A DNA stretch of 38,802 nucleotides from Betaproteobacteria bacterium (lineage in GTDB: Bacteria; Pseudomonadota; Gammaproteobacteria; Burkholderiales; SG8-39), in the NCBI GenBank assembly GCA_031409355.1, contig JANNXB010000407.1, forward strand, positions 1-38,802, given 5' to 3'. The first letter of the stretch is position 1. Every line of letters starts with the position of its first letter. The notes under the pieces were generated by a model that saw only the letters and a list, made by a program, of their open reading frames with translations, was not told where the DNA came from and ran no database searches. Both the position numbers and the translations under genes were made by a program. Shown one piece after another: positions 1 to 20,273 of the stretch.

Positions 1-1170
1 CTCCATAGATATCGGCTGGCCAGGACCCGTCAATCCCTGGCCCGTTCCAAATTAGGGGCGATGCTGTGCTTCGACCAGCACAACATCCGCTATATCTCTT
101 CCACCGTCATTGGCGAGTGGGCGCGGGACAAGCTGATCCGCTATTGCCTGCTCACCGGCACCGGCGATCCCTGGGTCTGGGATTTCGGTTCGGCGGCGCG
201 GCACCATAAGTTGTATTGCCCGTGGCTCAAGGAAGACCACGTGCGCGCGGGCAATCCGGGGATGCGCGGCGCGATCGGGCCGTCGGTCGGCCTGTTCGAG
301 GCGGCGGCGAAGGAGATCAAGGACATCCTGGTGCAGGAGGGCGTGGCGGGCATGCCCCTCGGCATCGACATGTGCGAGCCGGGGTTCCTGTTTGCGCTGG
401 AGAAGGAAGGCCTGAATATCCGCGACGGCCAGCAGATGATGCTGATGGCGCGCGAGGTGAAGAGCCATGACGAGATCACTCTGCTAAACACCGCGGCTGC
501 GATGGTGGACGGGGTCTACCAGGACATCACCGAGGCGTTGAAGCCCGGCGTGAAGGAAAGCCAGATCGTCGGCCTCGCCTCCAAGCGCCTCTACGAGATG
601 GGCTCGGACTGCGTCGAGGCGGTGAACGCCATCGCGGGCGAGCGCTGCAGCCCGCACCCGCACAATTTCACCGACCGCCTGATCCGCCCCGGCGACCAGG
701 CCTACTTCGACATCATCCATTCTTTCATCGGCTACCGCACCTGCTACTACCGCACGTTTTCGGTCGGCCGCTCGACGCCGGCGCAGCGCGACGCCTACAA
801 GAAGGCGCGCAACTGGATGGACGGCGCCATTTCGATGCTAAAGCCGGGCATCTCCACCGAAAAAGTGGCGAAGATGTTCCCCAAATGCACCGAGATCGGC
901 TTCGAGACCGAGATGTCCGCGTTCGGCCTGAATTTCTGCCATGGTCTCGGTCTCGGTCTGCACGAGCGGCCGCTCATCTCGCGCCTGAATTCGTTCATCG
1001 AGCCCTACGAACTGAAGGCCGGCATGGTGTTCGCGGTCGAGACCTTCTGCCCGGCCAAGGACGGAGTCTCGGCGGCGCGTATCGAGGAAGAAGTCGTGCT
1101 CACGCCCGAAGGCGCCAGGATCATTTCGCTGTATCCCGCACAGGAGTTACCGGTCGCAAATGCCTACTAA
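1..1170 (+). CDS. M24-family (creatinase/prolidase/Xaa-Pro aminopeptidase fold) hydrolase; 5' end lies outside the window
   Basis: Frame 1 is open from nt 1, with no stop before the ATG at 61. The upstream residues YRLARTRQSLARSKLGAMLCFDQHNIRYISS resemble the N-terminal creatinase/prolidase domain. C-terminal pita-bread motifs are present: AYFDII, CHGLGLGLHERP, VFAVETF, RIEEEVVLT. Stop is TAA at 1168-1170. Confidence 0.8.
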   Translation, partial: LHRYRLARTRQSLARSKLGAMLCFDQHNIRYISSTVIGEWARDKLIRYCLLTGTGDPWVWDFGSAARHHKLYCPWLKEDHVRAGNPGMRGAIGPSVGLFEAAAKEIKDILVQEGVAGMPLGIDMCEPGFLFALEKEGLNIRDGQQMMLMAREVKSHDEITLLNTAAAMVDGVYQDITEALKPGVKESQIVGLASKRLYEMGSDCVEAVNAIAGERCSPHPHNFTDRLIRPGDQAYFDIIHSFIGYRTCYYRTFSVGRSTPAQRDAYKKARNWMDGAISMLKPGISTEKVAKMFPKCTEIGFETEMSAFGLNFCHGLGLGLHERPLISRLNSFIEPYELKAGMVFAVETFCPAKDGVSAARIEEEVVLTPEGARIISLYPAQELPVANAY

Positions 1171-2077
1171 AAAGCAAACCATCGGCTGGATCGGCGCGGG
1201 GCGCATGGGCTACGAAATGGCCGGACGCCTCGCCAAGGGCGGCGCCGACGTGCTGGTGTGGAACCGGACGAAAGCCAAGGCGGAGCCGCTGGCGAAGTAC
1301 GGCGCCAAGGTTGCCGATGACGTCTCGGAACTCGCCTCGCGTGACATCGTGTTCTGCATGGTATCGACGTGGAAGGACGTGAAGGAGGTAGTCGAGAATC
1401 TCCTCAAAGGCAAGGCGAAGCCGAAATTGATCGTGGAGTGCTCTTCGATTTCTCTGGAAGGTTCGGCTGAACTGCGTCAAATTCTTGAAAGCAAAAAAAT
1501 AAACTATTTGGCCGCACCGGTTTCAGGGAACGCCAAGGTGATCAAGGCGGGCAAGCTCACCTTTGTATGCTCGGGTCCGAAGAGCGCCTACGACGCCGCC
1601 GAGCCTCTGCTGGACCTCATCGCCGTCAATTCAAGCTACGTCGGCGAAGGCGAGCTCGCGCGCATCGTCAAGATCTGCCACAACGTGTTCCTCGGCGTGG
1701 TGACGCAATCGCTGGCCGAGATCACGGTGCTGGCGCAGAAGGCGGGGGTGCCGCGCCACGCCTTCCTCGATTTCATGAACCAGAGCGTGATGGGATCGAC
1801 CTTCACGCGCTACAAGGCGCCGGCCTTTGTCAACCTGGACTTCAAAGTAACGTTTACTCCTCATCTGCTGAGGAAAGACATGGACCTGGGGCTGGACGCG
1901 GGGCGGAAGTTCGAAGTGCCGATGCCGCTGGCGAGCGCGACGCGCGACCTGATCCAATCGATGATCGGGCAGGGCTGGACCGAGCAGGATTTTGCAACGC
2001 TGCTGCTGCAACAGGCGGAGGCGTCCGGAATAAAACTGAAACCTGAGAACGTGGAGGTGGGAGATGGGCTTTCTTAA
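1160..2077 (+). CDS. NAD(P)-dependent oxidoreductase, beta-hydroxyacid (3-hydroxyisobutyrate/6-phosphogluconate-like) dehydrogenase family
   Basis: N-terminal Rossmann motif IGWIGAGRMGYEMAGRL. The 305-aa length and overall layout fit this family. The ATG overlaps the upstream gene by 11 nt. Confidence 0.85.
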   Translation: MPTKKQTIGWIGAGRMGYEMAGRLAKGGADVLVWNRTKAKAEPLAKYGAKVADDVSELASRDIVFCMVSTWKDVKEVVENLLKGKAKPKLIVECSSISLEGSAELRQILESKKINYLAAPVSGNAKVIKAGKLTFVCSGPKSAYDAAEPLLDLIAVNSSYVGEGELARIVKICHNVFLGVVTQSLAEITVLAQKAGVPRHAFLDFMNQSVMGSTFTRYKAPAFVNLDFKVTFTPHLLRKDMDLGLDAGRKFEVPMPLASATRDLIQSMIGQGWTEQDFATLLLQQAEASGIKLKPENVEVGDGLS

Positions 2078-3026
2078 AGGCATAGTTTTTTTACTGGGAG
2101 TTTTTTCGTCCCTGTCGATACAGGCGCAAAACTTTCCGAATAAACCCGTTCGCCTGATCATCGCGTTCACGCCGGGCAGCTCGACCGACATCATCGGCCG
2201 CGTGGTCGCGGCCAAGCTGCAGGAGATGTGGGGCCAGCCGGTGCTGGCCGAGAACCGCGCCGGCGCCGGCGGCTCGATCGGCTCCAAGTACGTGGTGGAC
2301 CAGCCCGCGGACGGCTATACCCTGCTCGCCAACTCCTCGGCGCACGCCGCCAATCCGGGCATCTTCGCCAAGCTGCCCTACGACACGCTGAAGGACTTCA
2401 CCAATCTCGCGCTGCTGGGCGGCGGGCCGAACGTCATGATCACCGCGCCCGATTCGGGGCTCAAGTCGCTGGGCGATTTCGTCAAGGCCGCGAAGGCGAG
2501 CCCGGGCAAGCTGAATTTCGCCTCCGCCGGCATCGGCAGCGGCACGCACTTCAACATCGAGAAGCTGAAGATCGCGACCGGCACCGACGTCACGCACGTG
2601 CCGTACAAGGGCACGCCGGAGGCGATCGCCGACACCATCAGCAACCGCACCTGCTGCTACTGGGCGCCGCTGAACGCCGCGCTGCCGCACGTCAACGGCG
2701 GCAAGGCGGTGGCGCTGGCGGTATCCAGCGCCACGCGTTCCCCGCTGCTGCCCAACGTGCCGACGGTGGCCGAGCAGGGCTACGCCGGCTTTGACTACAC
2801 GCTCTGGGTCGGCCTCTGGGGCCCGGCCGGCATGCCGGCCGACATCGCCGCCAGGATCAACAAGGACGTGGTTGCGGCTCTAAACAGTCCCGATACGCGC
2901 GAGCGGCTGACCAAGCTCGGCACCGTGCCGGGCAACATGTCGATGCCCGAGTTCAACGCCTTCTTGCGCAAGGAGATCGAGGACACGCAGAAGATCCTGA
3001 AGGCCGCCGGCATCAATCCGCAATAA
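2064..3026 (+). CDS. Bug-family (TctC-like) tripartite tricarboxylate transporter periplasmic substrate-binding protein
   Basis: Signal peptide MGFLKGIVFLLGVFSSLSIQA, then FPNKPVRLIIAFTPGSSTDIIGR and ENRAGAGGSIG, typical of Bug proteins. 320 aa. GGAGG-like RBS upstream. Overlaps the upstream gene by 14 nt. Confidence 0.9.
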   Translation: MGFLKGIVFLLGVFSSLSIQAQNFPNKPVRLIIAFTPGSSTDIIGRVVAAKLQEMWGQPVLAENRAGAGGSIGSKYVVDQPADGYTLLANSSAHAANPGIFAKLPYDTLKDFTNLALLGGGPNVMITAPDSGLKSLGDFVKAAKASPGKLNFASAGIGSGTHFNIEKLKIATGTDVTHVPYKGTPEAIADTISNRTCCYWAPLNAALPHVNGGKAVALAVSSATRSPLLPNVPTVAEQGYAGFDYTLWVGLWGPAGMPADIAARINKDVVAALNSPDTRERLTKLGTVPGNMSMPEFNAFLRKEIEDTQKILKAAGINPQ

Positions 3027-3036
3027 GGAGAACAGG

Positions 3037-3993
3037 ATGAGATGGTTTTTTGCTTTTGTTTCCCTGTTCCTTTGCATTCAGAATTCAAATGCACAAGGCT
3101 ATCCATCCAAGCCCGTCCGGCTGATCATCTCCTTCACGGCGGGCAGCTCCACCGACATCGTCGCGCGCGTCGTGATGCAGAGGGTGTCGGAATACTGGGG
3201 CCAGCCCGCGGTGATCGAGAACCGCGGCGGCGCCGGCGGCTCGATCGGTTCGGCGGTGGTCGCCAAGGCGGCAGCCGACGGCTACACGCTGCTGGTCAAC
3301 TCCTCGGCGCATTCGGTCAACCCGGCGATCTTCGCCAGCCTGCCTTACGACACGGTGAAGGACTTCACCGACATCGTGCCGCTGTCCATCCAGCCGAACG
3401 TGCTGGTGGTGAACGTCACCTCGCCGCACAAGACGATGATGGACCTGCTGAACGCGGCCAAGGCGAAGCCGGGCGCCATCAACTTCGGCCACGCCGGCAT
3501 CGGCAGCGGCACCCACCTCAGCACCGAACGCCTGATCGCCGCCGCGGGCATCAACGTCACGCAGGTGCCGTTCAAGGGCACGCCAGAGGTCATCACCGCG
3601 CTGCTAAGCAACTCGGTGGACTGCTACTGGGCGCCAATCTCGGCAGGCCTGTCGGCGATCAAGGGCGGCAAGCTGCGCGCGCTGGCCGTCAGCACCGCGA
3701 GGCGCAATCCGTCCCTGCCCGAAGTCCCGACGCCGGCCGAGGCGGGCGTGAAGAACGCGGAATCCGCGCTCTGGTTCGGCGTGTGGGGTCCCGCCGGCCT
3801 GCCCGCGGACGTGACGCAGAAGATCTCGGCGGACGTGCGCCGGGCGCTCTCGGAGCCGGTGGTGAAGGAAAAGCTCATCGCGCTCGGCAACGACACGCTG
3901 GACATGCCTCCGGCCGAGTTCGCGAAATTCGTGCGCGACGAGATCGATACCTACCAGCGCGTGATCAAGGCCGCGGGCATCAAGCCGCAGTAA
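3037..3993 (+). CDS. Bug-family (TctC-like) periplasmic substrate-binding protein, paralog of the preceding gene
   Basis: Signal peptide MRWFFAFVSLFLCIQNSNA, then YPSKPVRLIISFTAGSSTDIVAR and ENRGGAGGSIG. Collinear with the 2064-3026 product. AAGGAG RBS lies 10 nt after the previous stop. Confidence 0.9.
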   Translation: MRWFFAFVSLFLCIQNSNAQGYPSKPVRLIISFTAGSSTDIVARVVMQRVSEYWGQPAVIENRGGAGGSIGSAVVAKAAADGYTLLVNSSAHSVNPAIFASLPYDTVKDFTDIVPLSIQPNVLVVNVTSPHKTMMDLLNAAKAKPGAINFGHAGIGSGTHLSTERLIAAAGINVTQVPFKGTPEVITALLSNSVDCYWAPISAGLSAIKGGKLRALAVSTARRNPSLPEVPTPAEAGVKNAESALWFGVWGPAGLPADVTQKISADVRRALSEPVVKEKLIALGNDTLDMPPAEFAKFVRDEIDTYQRVIKAAGIKPQ

Positions 3994-4023
3994 AGGCAGG
4001 CCGCCGGCATCAAGCCGCAATAG
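3969..4023. repeat. Imperfect tandem duplication (30-nt period) of the 3' terminus of the Bug gene, including a second in-frame stop
   Basis: ggccgcgggcatcaagccgcagtaa (3969-3993) is followed by ggccgccggcatcaagccgcaatag (3999-4023), 22 of 25 nt identical. Copy 2 is in the same frame and would again read AAGIKPQ-stop. It also resembles the end of the first Bug gene (ggccgccggcatcaatccgcaataa, about 3002-3026). Confidence 0.6.
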
Positions 4024-4024
4024 A

Positions 4025-5611
4025 TTGGAACTTGATCTCCTGATCGTCGGAGCCGGTTTCGCCGGCCTCTGTATGCTGCACAAGGCCCGCCGGGCAGGCC
4101 TGTCGGCGCGGGTTCTGGAAGCCGGCGCCGGCGTCGGCGGCACTTGGTACTTCAACCGCTATCCGGGCGCGCGCGTAGACATCCAGAGCATGGAGTACTC
4201 GTTCGGCTTCTCCGACGACCTGCAGCAGGAATGGCGCTGGACCGAGCGCTACGCCGCGCAGCCCGAGCTGCTGCGCTACGCCAATCATGTGGCGGACCGC
4301 TTCGGCCTGCGCGACGGCATCCAGCTGAACACCCGCATGACCGGCGCCGCGTTCGACGAGCGTTCGCGGCGCTGGCAGGTGACCGCGGAGAGCGGCGAAA
4401 CCTGGTCGGTGCGGTTCCTGGTGATGGCGAGCGGGCCATTGTCTTCGCCCAGCACGCCGGATTTCCCGGGCCTCGCCGAGTTCGCCGGGCCCGTCTACCA
4501 CACGGCCCGCTGGCCGGCGGAGAAGATCGATTTCACCGGGCTGCGCGTGGGCCTGGTCGGTACGGGGTCATCCGGAGTGCAGGCCATTACGGCGATCGCG
4601 CGCGAATGCGGCGAGTTGACGGTGTTCCAGCGCACCGCCGCCTACGCGGTGCCGGCCCACAACGGCCATCTGGACCCGGGCTTCGAAGCGCGCGTGAAAT
4701 CCGACTACCAGGGCTTCCGCGCCCGCAACCGGAGGATGCAGGGCGGCTTCGGTTCGGAGCTCCCGCCCAACCCCGTCTCGGCGCTGGCGGCCGGGCCCGC
4801 CGAGCGCGAGGCGATGTTCGAGGCGCGCTGGCGCATCGGCGGCTTCGGATTTCTCGGCGCGTTCAACGACCTGCTGCTGGACGAGCGCGCCAACGCGCTG
4901 GCGGCGGAGTTCGTGCGCGGCAAGATCCGCTCGATCGTGCGCGACCCGGAAACCGCGCGCCTGCTGTCGCCGAAACAAACCATCGGCTGCAAGCGCCTGT
5001 GTGTCGATACCGGCTACTACGAGACCTACAACCGGCCCAACGTGCGGCTGGTGGACATCGCTATACAGCCGATCGAGCGCATCACGCCCGCGGGCCTGCT
5101 CGCCGGCGGGCGCGAATACGCGTTCGACGCGCTGGTGCTCGCCACCGGCTTCGACGCCATGACCGGGACACTGATGCGCCTCGACCTGCGCGGCCGCGGC
5201 GGCCTGACGATGCGGGAGAAGTGGGCCGCCGGGCCGCTCAACTACCTGGGCCTCCTCATCGAGGGTTTCCCGAACCTCTTCAACGTCGCCGGGCCGGGCA
5301 GCACCTCGGCCTTCACCAACGTCATGGTCTCCATCGAGCACCACGTCAACTGGATCGCGGATTGCATTTTGTTCTTGAACAACACTGGAAGAGAAACCAT
5401 TGAAGCAACCCGTGAGGCGGAAGCTGCCTGGGTCGAGCACGTTTACACGGTCGCGAAGCGCACCGTCTACCTGACCTGCAACTCCTGGTACCTGGGCGCG
5501 AACATCCCGGGCAAGCCGCGGGTGTTCATGCCGCTGTTCGGGTTCCCGGCCTACGCGGCGAAGTGCGCCGAAGTCGCCGGGCGCGGCTACGAAGGCTGCC
5601 TGCTTTCCTAG
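4025..5611 (+). CDS. Baeyer-Villiger-type flavin-containing monooxygenase (NADPH-dependent)
   Basis: FAD GxGxxG motif (VGAGFAGL) at the N-terminus. BVMO fingerprint FxGxxxHxxxW (FAGPVYHTARW). Second dinucleotide motif GTGSSG. 528 aa. The only start candidate upstream of the FAD motif is TTG 4025, with a weak RBS. Confidence 0.85.
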   Translation: MELDLLIVGAGFAGLCMLHKARRAGLSARVLEAGAGVGGTWYFNRYPGARVDIQSMEYSFGFSDDLQQEWRWTERYAAQPELLRYANHVADRFGLRDGIQLNTRMTGAAFDERSRRWQVTAESGETWSVRFLVMASGPLSSPSTPDFPGLAEFAGPVYHTARWPAEKIDFTGLRVGLVGTGSSGVQAITAIARECGELTVFQRTAAYAVPAHNGHLDPGFEARVKSDYQGFRARNRRMQGGFGSELPPNPVSALAAGPAEREAMFEARWRIGGFGFLGAFNDLLLDERANALAAEFVRGKIRSIVRDPETARLLSPKQTIGCKRLCVDTGYYETYNRPNVRLVDIAIQPIERITPAGLLAGGREYAFDALVLATGFDAMTGTLMRLDLRGRGGLTMREKWAAGPLNYLGLLIEGFPNLFNVAGPGSTSAFTNVMVSIEHHVNWIADCILFLNNTGRETIEATREAEAAWVEHVYTVAKRTVYLTCNSWYLGANIPGKPRVFMPLFGFPAYAAKCAEVAGRGYEGCLLS

Positions 5612-5614
5612 TTC

Positions 5615-7597
5615 CTAGGACGATGGGACTTTCTTCAGGTCCGACAGCCATGCCGTCGCGTTGCCGTCGGACGGTGCGCGCCAGTCGCCGCGCGGCGAAA
5701 GAGAGCCGCCGGAGCCCACCTTGGGGCCGTTGGGCAGGGCGCTGCGCTTGAACTGGCTGGTCTGGAAGAAGCGCCGCAGGAACACTTCCAGCCAGCGGCG
5801 GATTTCCCCCAGCTTGTACTTGCCCTGCCAGGCGTGCGCGGCGAGGAACGCCACCTTCGACGGAGTGTAGCCGAAGCGCAGCGTGTAGTAGAGGAAGAAG
5901 TCCTGGAGCTCATACGGCCCGATCACGTCTTCCGTCTTCTGATTTGGTTTTAATTCTGGAGAAATTTCAGTAGCAAGAACGCGAAGGAGCGCTTTATTCA
6001 CCGCTTCGCCGAACTGGCCCGACTTCGCCACCCAGCCGATCAGGTATTGCACCAGGGTCTTCGGCACGCTGACGTTGACGTTGTAATGCGACATATGGTC
6101 TCCAACGCCATAGGTTGCCCAGCCCAGCGCCAGCTCCGACAGGTCGCCGGTGCCCACCACCAGGCCGCCGTGGTGGTTGGCGAGGCGGAACAGGTGGCTG
6201 GTGCGCTCCCCCGCCTGTACGTTCTCGAAGGCGATGTCGTACTGCTTGCGGCCCTTGGCGTAGGGATGGCCCAGGTCCTTGAACATCTGCATGCACGAGG
6301 GGCGGATGTCGATTTCCTCCGGGCTGGCGTCCACGGCGCGCATCAGCTGCCAGGCGGTGGAGCGGGTGCGAGTGGAAGTCGCGAAACCGGGCATGGTGTA
6401 GGCGAGGATGTTGCCCCTCGGCAGGCCCAGCTCGTCCATCACGCGTGTGCTTACGAGCAGCGCCTGGGTCGAGTCCAGCCCGCCCGAGATGCCGATGACG
6501 AGCTTTTTCGTCCCGGTGGCGCGCATGCGCGTGGCGAGGCCCGCGACCTGGATGCGGTAGACCTCCTCGCAGCGCGCGTCGCGCGTTGCAGGGTCCGAAG
6601 GCACGTAGGGGAACCTGGGGATTTGCCTTTCGAGGGGAATTTTTCCGGCAGGAATATCCAATGAAAAATCCACCATCCTGAACTTCCCCACTTCTCCTGC
6701 ATGCCGCCGCGCGGACTCCCCGAACGAGTTCTGGCGCATGCGGTCGGCCTCGAGGCGCTCCAGGTCCAGGTCGGCATAGGTCAGCTGCGCGCGGGTGGCG
6801 AAGCGCTCGGACTCCGCCAGCAGCGAGCCGTTCTCGAAGGCCATGGCGTGGCCGTCCCAGGCGAGGTCGGTGGTGGACTCGCCCGCGCCCGCCGCGCTGT
6901 AGAGGTAGGCGGCGATGCAGCGCGCCGACTGGTTGGCGGCGAGGTCCCTGCGGTACTGGTGCTTGCCGACGACCACGTTGGAGGCCGACAGGTTGGCGAT
7001 TACCGTGGCGCCGGCGAGCGCGGCATACGAGGAGGGCGGCGCCGGCACCCACAGGTCCTCGCAGATCTCGGCGAAGAGCCTGAGCCTCGGGTTTTCTTGC
7101 AGCCTGAAAATCAGGGGCCCGAACGGCACGGCCCGGCCATCGAAAAAAATATCCTTCACCCCGTCCCCGCCCGGCGTGAATTGCCGCAATTCGTAGAACT
7201 CGCGGTAGTTGGGCAGGTAGGTCTTGGGCACAAGCCCGAGCAGTTCGCCGCGGCAGATGAGCGCCGCACAGTTGTAGAGCAGGCCGTCGGCGACCAGCGG
7301 CAGGCCGACGAAGGCGGCGATCGGCAGATTCTTCGAGCGTGCGAGCAGCCAGACGAGCGCCTCCTCGGTCGCGCGCAGCAGCGCCTGCTGGTGGAACAGG
7401 TCCTCGCAGCTGTAGGCGGAGAGCCCGAGCTCCGGGAACACCGCGACGATCGCCTTCTTCTTCGCCGCCTCGCGCATCAGCGCCAGCGTCGCCCCGGCGT
7501 TCGCCATCGGGTCGCCGATGCGCACCAGCGGCGTGGCGAGGGCGACGCGCGCGAAGCCGTGCCGGTAGAGGTTGAAAAAGTCGTCGTTTCGAGCCAT
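5615..7597 (-). CDS. nadE: Glutamine-dependent NAD+ synthetase (long form, CN-hydrolase domain fused to NAD synthetase domain)
   Basis: 660 aa. N-terminal nitrilase-like domain ([24 protein letters not shown]). C-terminal domain has the SGGxDS PP-loop (GISGGLDST). Confidence 0.92.
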
Positions 7598-7642
7598 GCA
7601 GCCTATTTTACGCCTGTTGTACTATGGTGTATAAAGCCATAT

Positions 7643-7846
7643 ATGTTCGAAGAGAGATGCCTGCTGCCCGACGACTTCGTCCTGGAAGCAAAGGTCCTGG
7701 ATGGCATGGATTTTTTTCTTTTGCTCAGGAAGGGAAAAACCATCCTGGTCGAGTACAGCAATGCGAGCGGCCATGAATTCAAGTCGGTGGAAAAACTCCG
7801 CTACGACTTCGAGCGCGATGTCGAAGACGCTCTACGTCAGGGTTAG
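7643..7846 (+). CDS. Small hypothetical protein (67 aa), candidate partner of the downstream wHTH gene
   Basis: ATG 7643 lies in the AT-richer gap after nadE. Third codon positions are mostly G/C. The 3' end overlaps the ATG (7818) of the next gene by 29 nt. I recognise no motif. Confidence 0.4.
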   Translation: MFEERCLLPDDFVLEAKVLDGMDFFLLLRKGKTILVEYSNASGHEFKSVEKLRYDFERDVEDALRQG

Positions 7847-8183
7847 CAGCGGGGAAAACCCGCGCGCCGACGCTCTCGACCGCTTCGAGGCCGCCTGGCA
7901 CCTGGCGACTGGCCGCAAGCCGCCCGCGCCGCTCGCGCTGCTGTCCTTCGCCGACCTGCCCCTGCTGATGAAAAACATCTCGCCCGCCCGCTGGGAGCTG
8001 CTACAGCGCCTGAAGAAGGCGGGGCCGCTGACGATTTTCGCGCTGGCGAAGCTGCTGGAGCGCGACTACAAGAACGTGCACACGGATGTTTCGCGTCTTC
8101 TCGAATTGAATCTTCTCGAAAAAAACCAGGAAGGACAGGTCAGCGTGCCCTGGCAAGCGGTCCGGGCCGAGCTGAAATTATAG
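7818..8183 (+). CDS. Small winged-helix (ArsR/MarR-like) DNA-binding protein, antitoxin-like predicted regulator (121 aa)
   Basis: I chose internal ATG 7818 of the 7701-8183 ORF. The 39 upstream codons are S/T-rich and overlap the better small ORF. The product MSKTLYVRVSS...ISPARWELLQRLKKAGPLTIFALAKLLERDYKNVHTDVSRLLELNLLEK has the layout of the ~120-aa predicted transcriptional regulators with a C-terminal wHTH. Confidence 0.7.
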   Translation: MSKTLYVRVSSGENPRADALDRFEAAWHLATGRKPPAPLALLSFADLPLLMKNISPARWELLQRLKKAGPLTIFALAKLLERDYKNVHTDVSRLLELNLLEKNQEGQVSVPWQAVRAELKL

Positions 8184-16016: not shown

Positions 16017-16075
16017 GTACCGCCACGCCTGCTTTGGGTGTTAGGCTGCACGGGGCTGACAGCAAGGATCAGGCG

Positions 16076-16372
16076 ATGCAAAAGACCAGGAACGAAGGCG
16101 AGCGCAAGTCGGATGTCGATCGTACGGTAAAGCTGACCTGGAAAGAGGTTTCGGAGGCGGAGTTGCGCGCGGCCCTCGCCAGCGCGAAGGGCGGATCAGA
16201 TCCGGCCGCGGCAATGAAACTGATCGAGTATTTCTACCGGCGGATCCACGACAACCTGCCGTACGACCAGACGATCCTGTTCGAGTATCTGGACCACGCT
16301 CTGGGCGGGATCGTGGAGGGTCGAGCGGCAGACAGCGCGTTCGGGCTCGAGCGGCGGTCCGTGAAGGAATAG
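16076..16372 (+). CDS. Hypothetical protein (98 aa), 7 nt upstream of the cyclase gene
   Basis: I chose internal ATG 16076 of the 15878-16372 ORF, because the upstream part overlaps the previous gene. Third positions are G/C-biased. I recognise no motif. Stop at 16370-16372, cyclase ATG at 16380. Confidence 0.5.
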   Translation: MQKTRNEGERKSDVDRTVKLTWKEVSEAELRAALASAKGGSDPAAAMKLIEYFYRRIHDNLPYDQTILFEYLDHALGGIVEGRAADSAFGLERRSVKE

Positions 16373-16379
16373 GCGTCCG

Positions 16380-17456
16380 ATGACGCGAATCACGACCGGC
16401 CGGGCGGTAGACGACATACTGAAGGGCAAGACTGTCCTGGTGGCCGACGACACCGCGGTGGTTCGCATGCTTGTCGCCGACACGCTCGGCTCGAGCGGCG
16501 TGCGAATCCTCGAGGCCGATTGCGGCGCGCGCGCGCTCGAGCTGGCGGGCGAAAACCTGGTGGATGCATTCCTGCTTGACATCCGGATGCCGGACATGAA
16601 CGGCATTGAGCTGTGCCGCACGATAAGGGGGATCGAACGCTACGGGGGCGCGCCGATCATGTTCATCACCGCCATGGATCAAAGGGACGTTCTGCAGTGG
16701 GCGCTTGAGGCCGGATGCGACGATTTCATGCAAAAGCCGATCGACGCCATGGTGCTGAGAAAGCGGCTCGGCAACCTGTTGCAGAAGGCCATTTATGTTA
16801 CGCAGATCGAACTGATGAGCCTGTCGCTGCAGCGCTATGTTTCACCGCGCACCGAGGAAATGGCCAGGATCTATGCAATGACCGGCCTGCTGCCGGGACC
16901 CAGGCAGCAGGAAGTATGCGTGCTGTTCTCCGATGCCCGCGGCTTCACGGAAATGAGCCAGCAGGTGGACCCCGAATTGCTGTTCCGAATGCTGAGCGAG
17001 CACCTGGCGGCGCAGGTGGATCTCGTCTACAACCACGCCGGATACATCGACAAGTTCGCCGGCGACGGAATCATGGCGGTGTTTGACGGTGACAATATGG
17101 CGCAGCGCGCCTGCAGATGCGCCCTCGATATCATGGACATGTCCAGGGAAAATGCCGCGCGCACCGGATCGAAGATCAACCGACTTGGTATCGGCATTCA
17201 CATGGGACTCGCGATCGTCGGGAACCTGGGCTCGCAGAACCATCTCGACTACACGCTTATCGGCGACACGGTGAACCTGGCAACCCGGCTTTGCGGCATC
17301 GCCAACGAATCCATCATCGCCTCGCAGGCGGTTTTCGACGCGCTGGCCGGCGTGCCCGAACCGAGATTCGGCGGGAAGAGGCCGGTGGCGATACGCGGCT
17401 ACCGGGATCCGGTGATCGTCTATGAACTCGCGCAACGGACGGGTCCGGCTGGATAG
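16380..17456 (+). CDS. Response-regulator receiver domain fused to a class III adenylate cyclase catalytic domain
   Basis: REC motifs: VLVADD, LLDIRMPDMNG (phospho-acceptor Asp), FITA, MQKP. Cyclase motifs: VLFSDARGFT and FAGDGIMAVF (metal Asps), Lys in IDKFAGDG, Thr in DYTLIGD, Asn/Arg in TVNLATRL. Confidence 0.9.
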   Translation: MTRITTGRAVDDILKGKTVLVADDTAVVRMLVADTLGSSGVRILEADCGARALELAGENLVDAFLLDIRMPDMNGIELCRTIRGIERYGGAPIMFITAMDQRDVLQWALEAGCDDFMQKPIDAMVLRKRLGNLLQKAIYVTQIELMSLSLQRYVSPRTEEMARIYAMTGLLPGPRQQEVCVLFSDARGFTEMSQQVDPELLFRMLSEHLAAQVDLVYNHAGYIDKFAGDGIMAVFDGDNMAQRACRCALDIMDMSRENAARTGSKINRLGIGIHMGLAIVGNLGSQNHLDYTLIGDTVNLATRLCGIANESIIASQAVFDALAGVPEPRFGGKRPVAIRGYRDPVIVYELAQRTGPAG

Positions 17457-17492
17457 CGCTTGGCCGGGCGGCGTCTCGGCCAGGGCGCGGTT

Positions 17493-18776
17493 TTACCGGG
17501 CGGTCCCGCCCTGCGGCAGGCGCTCGATCCGCTTGACCAGCGTCCTGAGCAGCGCACGGTCGAATTGCACCTGGCACGCCGCGGAGGCGCGGCGCAGCGA
17601 CCCGGCCGTGATTTCGAGCAGCACGACGGGCGAGGCGCTGGTCATGGTCGTTTCGCGCGGCGCCTCCCGTTCCTCGAAATACAGGATGTCGCCGAAAAGC
17701 TGGCCCTCGCCGAGGGTTTCGAGCGACACGCCGCCTCGGCTGACGACGACGTCGCCCGCCGCGATGATGAAAAAACCCCGGCAGGCCTCGCCCTCGCGAA
17801 TTACCGTCATTCCCTCGCGCAGCCGGTGCCAGACTCCGATGCGCAGCGCCTCCCAGATTTCGACGTCGCCGAATTCCTGGAACAGCGGCAGCTGGCACAA
17901 CACGCTGAACCGTTCCGCTTCCGACTGGTCCTGGTCGGGAAGCTTGAGTTTGCCGAACAGACCTTCGAGTTCCGCGGCAAACTCGCGCCATTCCGCATAG
18001 CGCTCCTCGCGGTTCTTGGCGAGCGCGCGCATCACGATGCGATCGAGTTCCGGCGGCAGATCCGGTCGGGCAAGCGAGGGCAGCGCCGGATCGATCTGCA
18101 GGATCTGGTACAGCAGGCTTTCGCGGCTCGAGCCGTGAAACGGAGGCCGGCCGGTCAGCAGCTGGTACATCACCGCGCCCAGTGAATAAATGTCGGTCTG
18201 GTGGCTGAGGCGCCTGTCCTCGATCTGCTCCGGCGACATATACAGGGGCGAGCCGACGCCGGAAAGAAGCGTGTGCGCCGCGGCGACATATTGCGCGGCG
18301 CCGAAGTCACTGATCTTCAGCTCATCGTTCTTGCAAAGCAGCAGGTTGGCCGGCTTGATGTCGCAATGAATCACGCCCTGCTGATGCGCGTGGTTCAGTG
18401 CGAGCGAGGCCATGAACATGAGTTCGACCACCCGGTCGATCGGTAGCAGATTGTCGTAGCGGCAGTACGTCTCGAGTGTGCCGCCGTCCGCGTACTCCAT
18501 GACGATGTAGTTCTCATTGCCCTCGCTGACCGCGTCATGAATTGCGACGATATGCGGGTGCTGCAGCTTTCCCGTAAGGGCGGCTTCGGTCAGGAACGCG
18601 CTCTGAGCCTGCTGCCGCTCCACTTCGCCCGCGACCAGGCTGGTCTGCATGACCTTGATCGCAACCTGCTGCGAGCGGAACATGTCGAAGGCCAGGTATA
18701 CGCAGCTGGTCGCACCTTGCCCGAGCAAACGGCTTACGGGATACTTGCCAATGCTCCGGGGTATCGCCTCGGTCAT
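17493..18776 (-). CDS. Hanks-type Ser/Thr protein kinase with a C-terminal cyclic-nucleotide-binding (CAP/PKA-R type) domain
   Basis: I chose ATG 18776 (MTEAIPRSIGKYPVSRLLGQGATSCVY). Kinase motifs: GQGATS, VAIKVM, HCDIKPANLL, SDFG, SPEQ. The C-terminal ~120 aa resemble a cNMP-binding barrel (LPLFQEF...GEGQLFGDILYFEEREAPRETT). Confidence 0.88.
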   Translation of the reverse strand: MTEAIPRSIGKYPVSRLLGQGATSCVYLAFDMFRSQQVAIKVMQTSLVAGEVERQQAQSAFLTEAALTGKLQHPHIVAIHDAVSEGNENYIVMEYADGGTLETYCRYDNLLPIDRVVELMFMASLALNHAHQQGVIHCDIKPANLLLCKNDELKISDFGAAQYVAAAHTLLSGVGSPLYMSPEQIEDRRLSHQTDIYSLGAVMYQLLTGRPPFHGSSRESLLYQILQIDPALPSLARPDLPPELDRIVMRALAKNREERYAEWREFAAELEGLFGKLKLPDQDQSEAERFSVLCQLPLFQEFGDVEIWEALRIGVWHRLREGMTVIREGEACRGFFIIAAGDVVVSRGGVSLETLGEGQLFGDILYFEEREAPRETTMTSASPVVLLEITAGSLRRASAACQVQFDRALLRTLVKRIERLPQGGTAR

Positions 18777-18870
18777 GTAATCAAGGTGCGGTGTTGTCCG
18801 ACGTTGCAGTTGCGGATATTTTGGTCTAAAAAGCACATGTAGCGTTAGATAGTTACGCCAAGGAGACGCA

Positions 18871-19308
18871 GTGGACCTCATTGCACACTTTCAGGGAGCT
18901 CGGAACCTGGTTTTCATTCAAGCCGGGGTCCCTTTGTTCAGCGAGGGCGAGCCTGGGAATGCCATGTACGTACTCATGGAAGGTTCGGCAGTGGTCGTTG
19001 TGGCGGGTCACGCTATCGAGGTTGCCGTGCCGGGGGCTTTGCTTGGTGAAATGGCTTTGGTCGATTCATCCGTCAGAAGTGCTACGGCAATAGCGCGCAC
19101 AAATTGCCGCCTTTTGCCAATCAACCGCGCGCATTTCGATCTGCTGGTACGCGAATCTCCCGAATTCGCGAGGCACGTCATGACGGTAATGGCCGGCCGA
19201 TTGCGGAGCATGAACCAAAGACTTCTGGCAGCTGTATATAACGACCCGACGATCCGGAACATTCTGCGGCGCAATACTGCCGCAACCGTCGAGCAAATGG
19301 GCAATTAG
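18871..19308 (+). CDS. Stand-alone cyclic-nucleotide-binding domain protein (145 aa)
   Basis: GTG start 5 nt after AAGGAG. The whole protein is a single cNMP-binding domain with a canonical phosphate-binding cassette GEMALVDSSVRSAT. No HTH or other output domain. Confidence 0.8.
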   Translation: MDLIAHFQGARNLVFIQAGVPLFSEGEPGNAMYVLMEGSAVVVVAGHAIEVAVPGALLGEMALVDSSVRSATAIARTNCRLLPINRAHFDLLVRESPEFARHVMTVMAGRLRSMNQRLLAAVYNDPTIRNILRRNTAATVEQMGN

Positions 19309-19329
19309 CCCAGCCCGATCCCCGATGTT

Positions 19330-20273
19330 CTAGACGACCGCGCCCTCGTTCTTTTCCTCCGCGCCTTCCTTTTTCGTCGGGCGCACGAACTGGGCTCGAT
19401 CCACCCCGAGCCACATCACCAGCGGGCTGGCGACCAGCACGGACGAGTAGATCCCGAAGCAGATGCCGATGGTGAGCGCGAGCGCGAAGTAGTGCAGCGC
19501 CGGGCCGCCGAAGAGCAGCATGGTGGTGACCATCATCTGGTGCAGCCGTGGGTGATGATGGTGCGCGAAATGACGCCGGTGATCGCGCTGTCGATGACTT
19601 CCGGCACCGTGGCCTTCCGCATCTTGCGGAAGTTCTCCCGCACCCGGTCGAACACCACCACCGATTCGTTCACCGAGTAGCCGAGCACCGCGAGCACCGC
19701 GGCCAGCACCGGCAGCGAAAATTCCCACTGGAACAGGGCGAAGAAGCCCAGGATGATCACCACGTCGTGCAGGTTGGCGATGATCGCGGCCAGGCCGAAG
19801 CGCCACTCAAAGCGGATCCAGAGGTAGAACACGATGCCCACCGCGGTGACGAGGAGCGCGAGCGCGCCGTGCTCGGCGAGCTCGTCGCCGACCTGCGGGC
19901 CGACGAACTCGATGCGGCGCACCTCGGCCGTGGCGTCCTGCACCTTTAGCAGCCCCGTGACTTTCTGCGACAGGTCGGCGGTGGACTGGCCCTTCTCGAC
20001 CGGCAGGCGGATCAGCACGTCGCGCGAGGAGCCGAAGTTCTGCACCTCGCCCTTCAGGCCGGCCTTGTCCAGCGTCTCGCGGATCGCCTCGACGTTCGCG
20101 GCCTCCTTGTAGTTGACCTCCACCAGCGTGCCGCCGGTGAACTCGACCGAGAAATGCAGTCCCTTGTAGGCGAGGAAGAACACCGCGAGGAAGAAGGTGA
20201 CCAGCGAGATGATGTTGAACAGCAGCGCATGCCGCATGAACGGAATGACGCGGCGGATCTTGAATAACTCCAT
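19330..20273 (-). pseudogene. secF: Protein-export membrane protein SecF, reading frame broken by an apparent 1-nt deletion (or a sequencing error)
   Basis: ORF 19533-20273 ends ...SRTIITHGCTR-stop. ORF 19330-19806 continues in another frame with QMMVTTMLLFGGPALHYFALALTIGICFGIYSSVLVASPLVMWLG. Joined, they give a normal ~313-aa SecF. Confidence 0.85.

Follow-up and report, generated by a model that had tools for sequence, protein, structure and literature searches.

In PKA and PKG, tandem cyclic-nucleotide-binding (CNB) domains, N-terminal or carried on a separate R subunit, are coupled to a Ser/Thr kinase of the AGC type. Bacterial cyclic AMP (cAMP) acts mainly via transcription factors, with few exceptions, e.g., an acetyltransferase and an EAL phosphodiesterase. 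Mycobacterial Pat has a CNB domain fused to a GNAT domain and is a cAMP-regulated protein acetyltransferase, and CbpA of Pseudomonas aeruginosa is a cAMP-binding CNB protein without a DNA-binding domain. To our knowledge, only domain catalogues have so far suggested that a Hanks kinase is directly controlled by cAMP. A receiver-regulated class III cyclase, CyaC, has been described in cyanobacteria (Kasahara & Ohmori 1999, as cited in PMC1183210). A survey of 2007 lists bacterial CNB-kinase fusions but does not characterise them (PMC2246266), and a survey of Planctomycetota kinases notes them as well (PMC11032199). Here, we describe a block of four genes at positions 16076–19308 of contig JANNXB010000407.1 (assembly GCA_031409355.1; the whole 38,802-nt stretch analysed is called the window), which codes for a class III cyclase linked to a receiver domain (REC), a Ser/Thr kinase that ends in a CNB domain (kinase-CNB), a protein made up of a CNB domain alone (CNB145), and a small protein, orf99. 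The host is an uncultured soil or water betaproteobacterium, represented by a metagenome-assembled genome of 3.47 Mb that is ~90% complete. The features of the locus are as follows (approximate domain borders marked with ~).

16017–16075, no strand: left junction, from the SpdSyn stop to the orf99 start (defined by comparison with ~19 same-genus genomes)
16076–16372, plus strand: orf99, 98 amino acids (aa), helical; ends 7 nt ahead of the cyclase start
16380–17456, plus strand: REC and class IIIb adenylate cyclase gene (class and product by signature), 358 aa (Pfam; alignments to PleD, 3r5g, and 1wc0)
~16434–16769 and ~16902–17429, plus strand: REC domain and cyclase domain, respectively (Pfam)
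17457–17492, no strand: convergent spacer, 36 nt, with a short GC hairpin (TGGCCG...CGGCCA)
17493–18776, minus strand: kinase-CNB gene, soluble Hanks Ser/Thr kinase with a C-terminal CNB domain (Pfam)
~17997–18740 and ~17589–17825, minus strand: kinase domain and its CNB domain, respectively (Pfam)
18777–18870, no strand: divergent intergenic region, 94 nt, AT-rich, holding the CNB145 Shine-Dalgarno sequence AAGGAGA
18871–19308, plus strand: CNB145, 145 aa, stand-alone CNB domain (Pfam, NCBIfam)
19309–19329, no strand: right junction, from the CNB145 stop to the secF stop (defined by the empty-site comparison)

The original prediction, made from the letters of the window, had described the cyclase, the kinase-CNB, and the CNB-only protein as one second-messenger circuit. 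The three genes lie where and as it placed them (open reading frames [ORFs] and Pfam domains above cut-offs), including the 36-nt convergent gap, and its readings of the cyclase residues, of the phospho-acceptor receiver, and of a CNB-only protein with a canonical cassette and no helix-turn-helix (HTH) agree with the domain searches and alignments given below. The interval, however, carries four ORFs rather than three, and it starts at 16076 because orf99 is included; leaving orf99 out was a fault of that description, as this gene is more tightly linked to the others than CNB145 is. We consider it fairly probable that the block is a horizontally mobile, self-contained signalling cassette, with orf99, the REC-adenylate cyclase, and the kinase-CNB as its core and CNB145 as an optional member, in which cAMP would act on the kinase.

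The four genes are one low-GC insertion at an otherwise empty site. In ~19 genomes of the genus, purB and SpdSyn are directly followed by secF and secD, whereas in the window 3.3 kb with all four genes sit between SpdSyn and secF. One genome (G011) has the empty SpdSyn/secF site, yet carries the module at another site. At 0.617, the GC content of the block falls in the 3rd percentile of the genome (mean 0.654 ± 0.019), and the GC content at third codon positions (GC3) is 0.62–0.83 in the four genes, compared with 0.86–0.94 in their neighbours. A repeat search around the junctions revealed no meaningful direct or inverted repeats flanking the insertion.

In this genome, at least 17 class III cyclase domains were counted and at least 27 CNB domains, besides several full-length paralogues of the kinase-CNB. 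With domains so numerous, adjacency in one genome is weak evidence: by a rough estimate, the chance that some cyclase in this genome adjoins a CNB gene is ~1 in 4. Two more cyclase/CNB gene adjacencies were seen in it (G000:C538, 3115–5470; G000:C99, 83–2556). Kinase orthologues at 66–94% identity were collected from sister genomes and metagenome contigs, and the REC-cyclase adjoins the kinase in 14 independent contigs, i.e., the window and 13 others (L090, L091, L075, L067, L094, L093, L013, L014, L137, L071, L069, L072, and L135). Convergent cyclase and kinase genes with orf99 upstream of the cyclase (orf99> cyclase> <kinase) are found in the window and nine other loci. The order <cyclase kinase> <orf99 occurs in L072 and L135, as well as in L069, there without orf99, and L095 has <orf99 kinase>. 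The loci thus differ in gene order (at least three arrangements) and in genomic context (at least five), the flanking genes being variously SpdSyn/secF, aldo-keto reductase, ribonucleotide reductase, ABM/chromate transporter, ABC substrate-binding protein/IS91/RelE, and TctC. In the clade of kinase orthologues, cyclase and kinase are neighbours at all informative loci, and no separation was seen. The association therefore exceeds chance, and orf99, the cyclase, and the kinase-CNB are a real unit, kept through rearrangement and relocation.

The trees of the two enzymes agree. In the maximum-likelihood tree, 11 paired kinases form one clade (Shimodaira-Hasegawa-like approximate likelihood ratio test [SH-aLRT] 99); the paired cyclases likewise group together (99) and branch in the same way within their clade, and pairwise distances of kinases and cyclases correlate with r = 0.92. 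The sister kinase clade (69–70% identity; L015, L016, and L070) and the more distant L073 and L074 are without a cyclase, and nine solo cyclase orthologues of the genus (50–67% identity), which have no partners, fall outside the paired clade. Since the paired members form one clade, with the solo and unpaired relatives outside, the kinase-cyclase pairing has a single origin. The co-conservation that the original prediction had proposed for checking is accordingly present for the cyclase and the kinase-CNB, at every informative locus and with congruent trees; the CNB-only protein accompanies them in four of the 13. In addition, a 348-aa Hanks kinase consisting of a kinase domain only was seen within 0.2–2.5 kb of the module in two loci (L067, 11031–12080; L137, 3756–4802).

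The tightest companion of the module is orf99, which is present in 12 of the 13 informative loci (53–88% identity) and is more closely linked than CNB145. Its family comprises 79 clusters of 84–102 aa, all annotated as hypothetical, and the members examined, including the most divergent one (53% identity), all sit in this module. No match to orf99 was found in Pfam, NCBIfam, or PADLOC, nor any fold match in the PDB, and its distant homologues (150–200 aa) are likewise without Pfam domains. The AlphaFold2 model has four helices (mean predicted local distance difference test [pLDDT] 78) and a disordered N-terminus bearing an invariant Thr-rich motif, DRTVKLTW.

The cyclase gene product has a Response_reg domain (PF00072, residues 19–130, 85.8 bits, above the Pfam cut-off) followed by a Guanylate_cyc domain (PF00211, residues 175–350, 69.2 bits vs the cut-off of 21.9). 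The motifs FSD, IDKFaGD, and DYTlIGdtVNLAtR align with those of the class IIIb enzymes CyaB (3r5g) and CyaC (1wc0); both metal-binding Asp residues (FSD and GDG) and the Asn/Arg pair (VNLATR) are present. The specificity pair consists of Lys (IDKF) and Thr (DYT), the latter replacing Asp, and corresponds to the IDKF/VDKF and DYT/DFT motifs of CyaB and CyaC, whereas in the guanylate cyclase Cya2 (2w01) the two residues are Glu and Gly. By its signature, the enzyme is a class IIIb adenylate cyclase, with cAMP as the predicted product. In the receiver, the VADD, LLDIRMPDMNG, FITA, and QKP motifs align with PleD and supply the acidic pair, the acceptor Asp, the Thr, and the Lys, respectively. The protein resembles CyaB and CyaC in its class IIIb catalytic and Lys/Thr residues, and CyaC in having REC upstream of the catalytic domain. 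It differs from CyaC in being a minimal 358-aa REC-linker-cyclase that has no histidine kinase or GAF domains and lies within a kinase-CNB cassette.

The longest ORF of the kinase is 17493–18881 (minus strand); the true start is placed at ATG 18776, because the homologues are uniformly ~428 aa long and begin with MxExxP. The protein matches Pkinase with 182 bits and cNMP_binding (PF00027) with 44.5 bits (cut-off 27.5). Across 36 kinase homologues, the catalytic residues K41, E64, D139, N144, DFG157–159, and PE182–183 are invariant, and so are the Arg of the phosphate-binding cassette of the CNB domain (R374) and its FG motif. The catalytic loop reads HCD here and in most of the family and HRD in a few paralogues, which makes this a kinase without the Arg-Asp (RD) motif. 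By fold and sequence, its kinase domain is nearest to bacterial PknB and Stk1, and PknB-type kinases (36% identity) make up the top 25 fold matches. The CNB fold is retained in the AlphaFold2 model (pLDDT 85, predicted template modelling score [pTM] 0.66). Like PKG and PKA, the protein couples a CNB domain to a Ser/Thr kinase, as a single chain in the manner of PKG, and the CNB domains of both CNB145 and the kinase align best with Plasmodium PKG. The kinase, however, is PknB-like and not AGC, and its CNB domain is single, C-terminal, and divergent in the cassette, unlike the tandem domains of the eukaryotic enzymes. Because the kinase is PknB-like, the likeness is one of convergent fusion and not of family membership. 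Among module proteins, one NCBIfam match is to acetyltransferase Pat; with mycobacterial Pat the kinase shares the bacterial fusion of a CNB domain with an enzyme that modifies proteins, Pat being under direct cAMP control, but Pat acetylates rather than phosphorylates and has no dedicated co-inherited cyclase.

Kinases of the C-terminal linker-CNB type were found in eight of 400 genomes forming an even sample of the phylum (~2%; ~1.5% when only full-length, kinase-sized ORFs are counted), concentrated in Burkholderiales. A second kinase-CNB paralogue (~40% identity, 436 aa) recurs in the genus: in more than 10 genomes it lies 4–6 kb from a ~300-aa tandem-CNB protein (G000:C229 [L063], 905–2128, minus strand, and 6139–6927, plus strand; also, among others, G014:C144, G032:C124, G021:C109, G023:C54, and G009:C53). 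This pair may be another conserved association of a kinase-CNB with a CNB-only protein.

CNB145 has cNMP_binding as its sole Pfam domain (59.6 bits). In the alignment to PKG and PKA-R CNB domains, its phosphate-binding cassette (GEMALVDSSVRSAT) is canonical, and the beta2-beta3 loop reads EGEPGN. No HTH was detected: the CRP model reaches 36 bits vs a cut-off of 266, and the match is confined to the CNB part. The protein is similar to CbpA in being CNB-only, with no DNA-binding domain; by contrast, it is a single domain of 145 aa and recurs beside pairs of kinase and cyclase genes. It is preceded by the Shine-Dalgarno sequence AAGGAGA, 5 nt ahead of the gene. CNB145 is a facultative fourth member of the module, as it adjoins the other genes in only four of the 13 informative loci (the window, L071, L075, and L097). 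The orthologues in L071, L075, and L097 are 79–81% identical to it, and in L071 the gene runs in the same direction as the kinase gene instead of diverging from it. Its GC3 of 0.62, compared with 0.80–0.83 in orf99, the cyclase gene, and the kinase gene, is a hint that it has an origin of its own or is expressed at another level. An origin of CNB145 in the secDF neighbourhood was considered and rejected: its orthologues are never beside secF, and the site is empty in ~19 sister genomes.

In two other genomes, CNB145 orthologues with 66–69% identity adjoin a pair of CHASE2 genes: a CHASE2-class III cyclase gene comes immediately after a CHASE2-Ser/Thr kinase gene (L049 [G006:C70], 2865–8063; L050 [G026:C294]), and the orthologue, a CNB-only protein of 130 aa, is convergent to them. 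This is a second, independent triad of kinase, cyclase, and small CNB protein. The CHASE2 neighbour in G006 and G026 had been considered as a kinase-cyclase fusion, which was rejected, as there are two separate genes. Two further CNB145 orthologues have neither a kinase nor a cyclase partner. In L097, a metagenome contig, the CNB145 orthologue and the module kinase have two further neighbours, a Glutaminase-STAS-CNB fusion (49–1524, plus strand) and a 271-aa protein (2289–3104, minus strand) whose C-terminal part is a receiver domain.

A consensus scan of the locus for promoters and terminators gave nothing above the shuffled expectation and called no T-run terminator at 17457–17492. Downstream of the insertion, secF (19330–20273, minus strand) is broken into two frames at ~19533; 3 nt separate its two aligned segments here vs 4 nt in relatives, which fits a 1-base deletion or an assembly error.

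For the signalling cassette, we infer the following sequence of events. An unlinked histidine kinase or a small phosphodonor would phosphorylate the receiver Asp of the cyclase. Receiver-driven dimerisation would then build the two-subunit class III active site, and ATP would be converted to cAMP. Binding of cAMP to the C-terminal CNB domain of the PknB-like kinase might release autoinhibition; allosteric control of this kind suits a non-RD kinase, which does not depend on phosphorylation of its activation loop. The kinase would in turn phosphorylate Ser/Thr residues on its targets, the first candidates being orf99, at DRTVKLTW, and the cyclase, as feedback. Where present, CNB145 may bind the same cAMP and serve as a buffer or as an R-subunit-like trans-adaptor.

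Several observations weigh against this scheme. On the input side, inspection of neighbouring genes did not reveal a cognate histidine kinase in any module locus, and the solo cyclase orthologues come after a TonB-dependent receptor gene, not a kinase. The REC-cyclase is thus an orphan response regulator, and of the two-component input originally proposed, the intact receiver residues stand, whereas the histidine kinase is missing from the module loci. CNB145 is absent from nine of the 13 informative loci, and, the pairing having arisen once, the 14 loci do not count as independent origins. On the side of the reader, the pTM of 0.66 leaves the inter-domain geometry of the kinase unsettled, and the cassette is the least confident part of the modelled CNB domain. 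In the module clade, the kinase CNB domain has FGD...PRETT where FGE...R[ST]A is canonical: Asp takes the place of the ribose-contacting Glu, Arg-Glu-Thr-Thr follows a lengthened cassette instead of R-[ST]-A-[ST], and Cys-Arg replaces the canonical Gly-Asp of the beta2-beta3 loop. More distant kinase-CNB paralogues keep the canonical GDxGD and FGE. With hallmark cAMP-contact and allostery residues changed in the clade, ligand binding by the kinase CNB domain may be altered or lost. The cassette Arg and the Gly of the beta2-beta3 loop co-evolve in CNB domains (Kannan et al., PMC2246266), so the loop change in the kinase matters for ligand retention. The role of cAMP reader predicted for the kinase therefore holds as far as a CNB domain is present (44.5 bits) and is put in question by the loss of several hallmark residues. 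That the kinase reads cAMP is what we infer from its sequence, and the main weakness of the scheme is that its CNB domain may no longer bind cAMP.

The same substitutions, specific to the module clade in both the cassette and the beta2-beta3 loop, would also fit a reversed wiring. The kinase CNB domain would then be a degenerate pseudo-sensor for docking, dimerisation, or another ligand, the kinase would act on orf99 and/or the REC-cyclase to set the cAMP output, and canonical CNB proteins, CNB145 among others, would read the cAMP. The canonical cassette of CNB145 is consistent with this arrangement, candidate readers are plentiful (at least 27 CNB domains in the genome), and a non-RD kinase may be constitutively competent. 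However, the kinase family has kept the cassette Arg, the FG motif, and the CNB fold without change, which argues for a retained phosphate-containing ligand, and among the orthologues the linker-CNB segment is about as conserved as the kinase domain. We regard such a reversal as unlikely, although worth keeping in mind.

A direct signalling relationship would not be needed if the genes hitch-hiked together as one transferable segment. The genome is saturated with the domains concerned (the cyclase and CNB domains counted above, and many kinase-CNB paralogues), the pairing has a single origin, and the block is an insertion with atypical GC, all of which suit co-mobility. Against it, the adjacency has outlasted at least two internal rearrangements (convergent to divergent orientation, and transfer of orf99 to the other side of the kinase) and at least five relocations, with no separation in the clade, and all orf99 family members examined lie in the module. 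Mere hitch-hiking is in our judgement improbable. A Pycsar-like anti-phage system, in which a cyclic nucleotide is made on infection and a CNB-bearing kinase effector shuts the cell down, is very unlikely: it has the same two-gene logic of a cyclase and a CNB-bearing effector, the PADLOC models PycC, PD-T4-6, and PycTIR match the three proteins at the domain level, and module locations vary (IS91 and RelE genes lie close to one locus, an nSTAND ATPase close to another), but those matches are generic domain matches, Pycsar uses a pyrimidine cyclase with a TIR or transmembrane effector whereas the cyclase here has the adenine-type (purine) Lys/Thr pair and is under the control of a two-component receiver, the effector here would be a kinase, Pfam shows no TIR or transmembrane effector, and the kinase-CNB belongs to a multi-copy, housekeeping-style family in these genomes.

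If the mechanism proposed for the signalling cassette is true, the cassette would be a variant of known signalling logic and a bacterial counterpart of the animal cAMP-to-kinase pathway. The literature search returned catalogue mentions only, and no experimental study of a bacterial kinase-CNB; it likewise brought up no characterised bacterial example of such wiring, as the original prediction had supposed. In its widest form, which we put forward tentatively as an open possibility, the cassette may represent the first prokaryotic cyclic-nucleotide-dependent protein kinase pathway, a portable set of genes carrying a two-component signal through cAMP to Ser/Thr phosphorylation, with orf99 as a dedicated substrate or adaptor and CNB145 as an R-subunit-like modulator. 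The cassette offers a compact, co-evolving set of three to four soluble proteins, tractable at the bench, for asking whether bacteria reinvented the eukaryotic cAMP-to-kinase logic, and also a route to learning how receiver domains gate class III cyclases. Kinase-CNB proteins number in the thousands in Burkholderiales metagenomes, with several copies per genome, so a result obtained here would annotate a large family.

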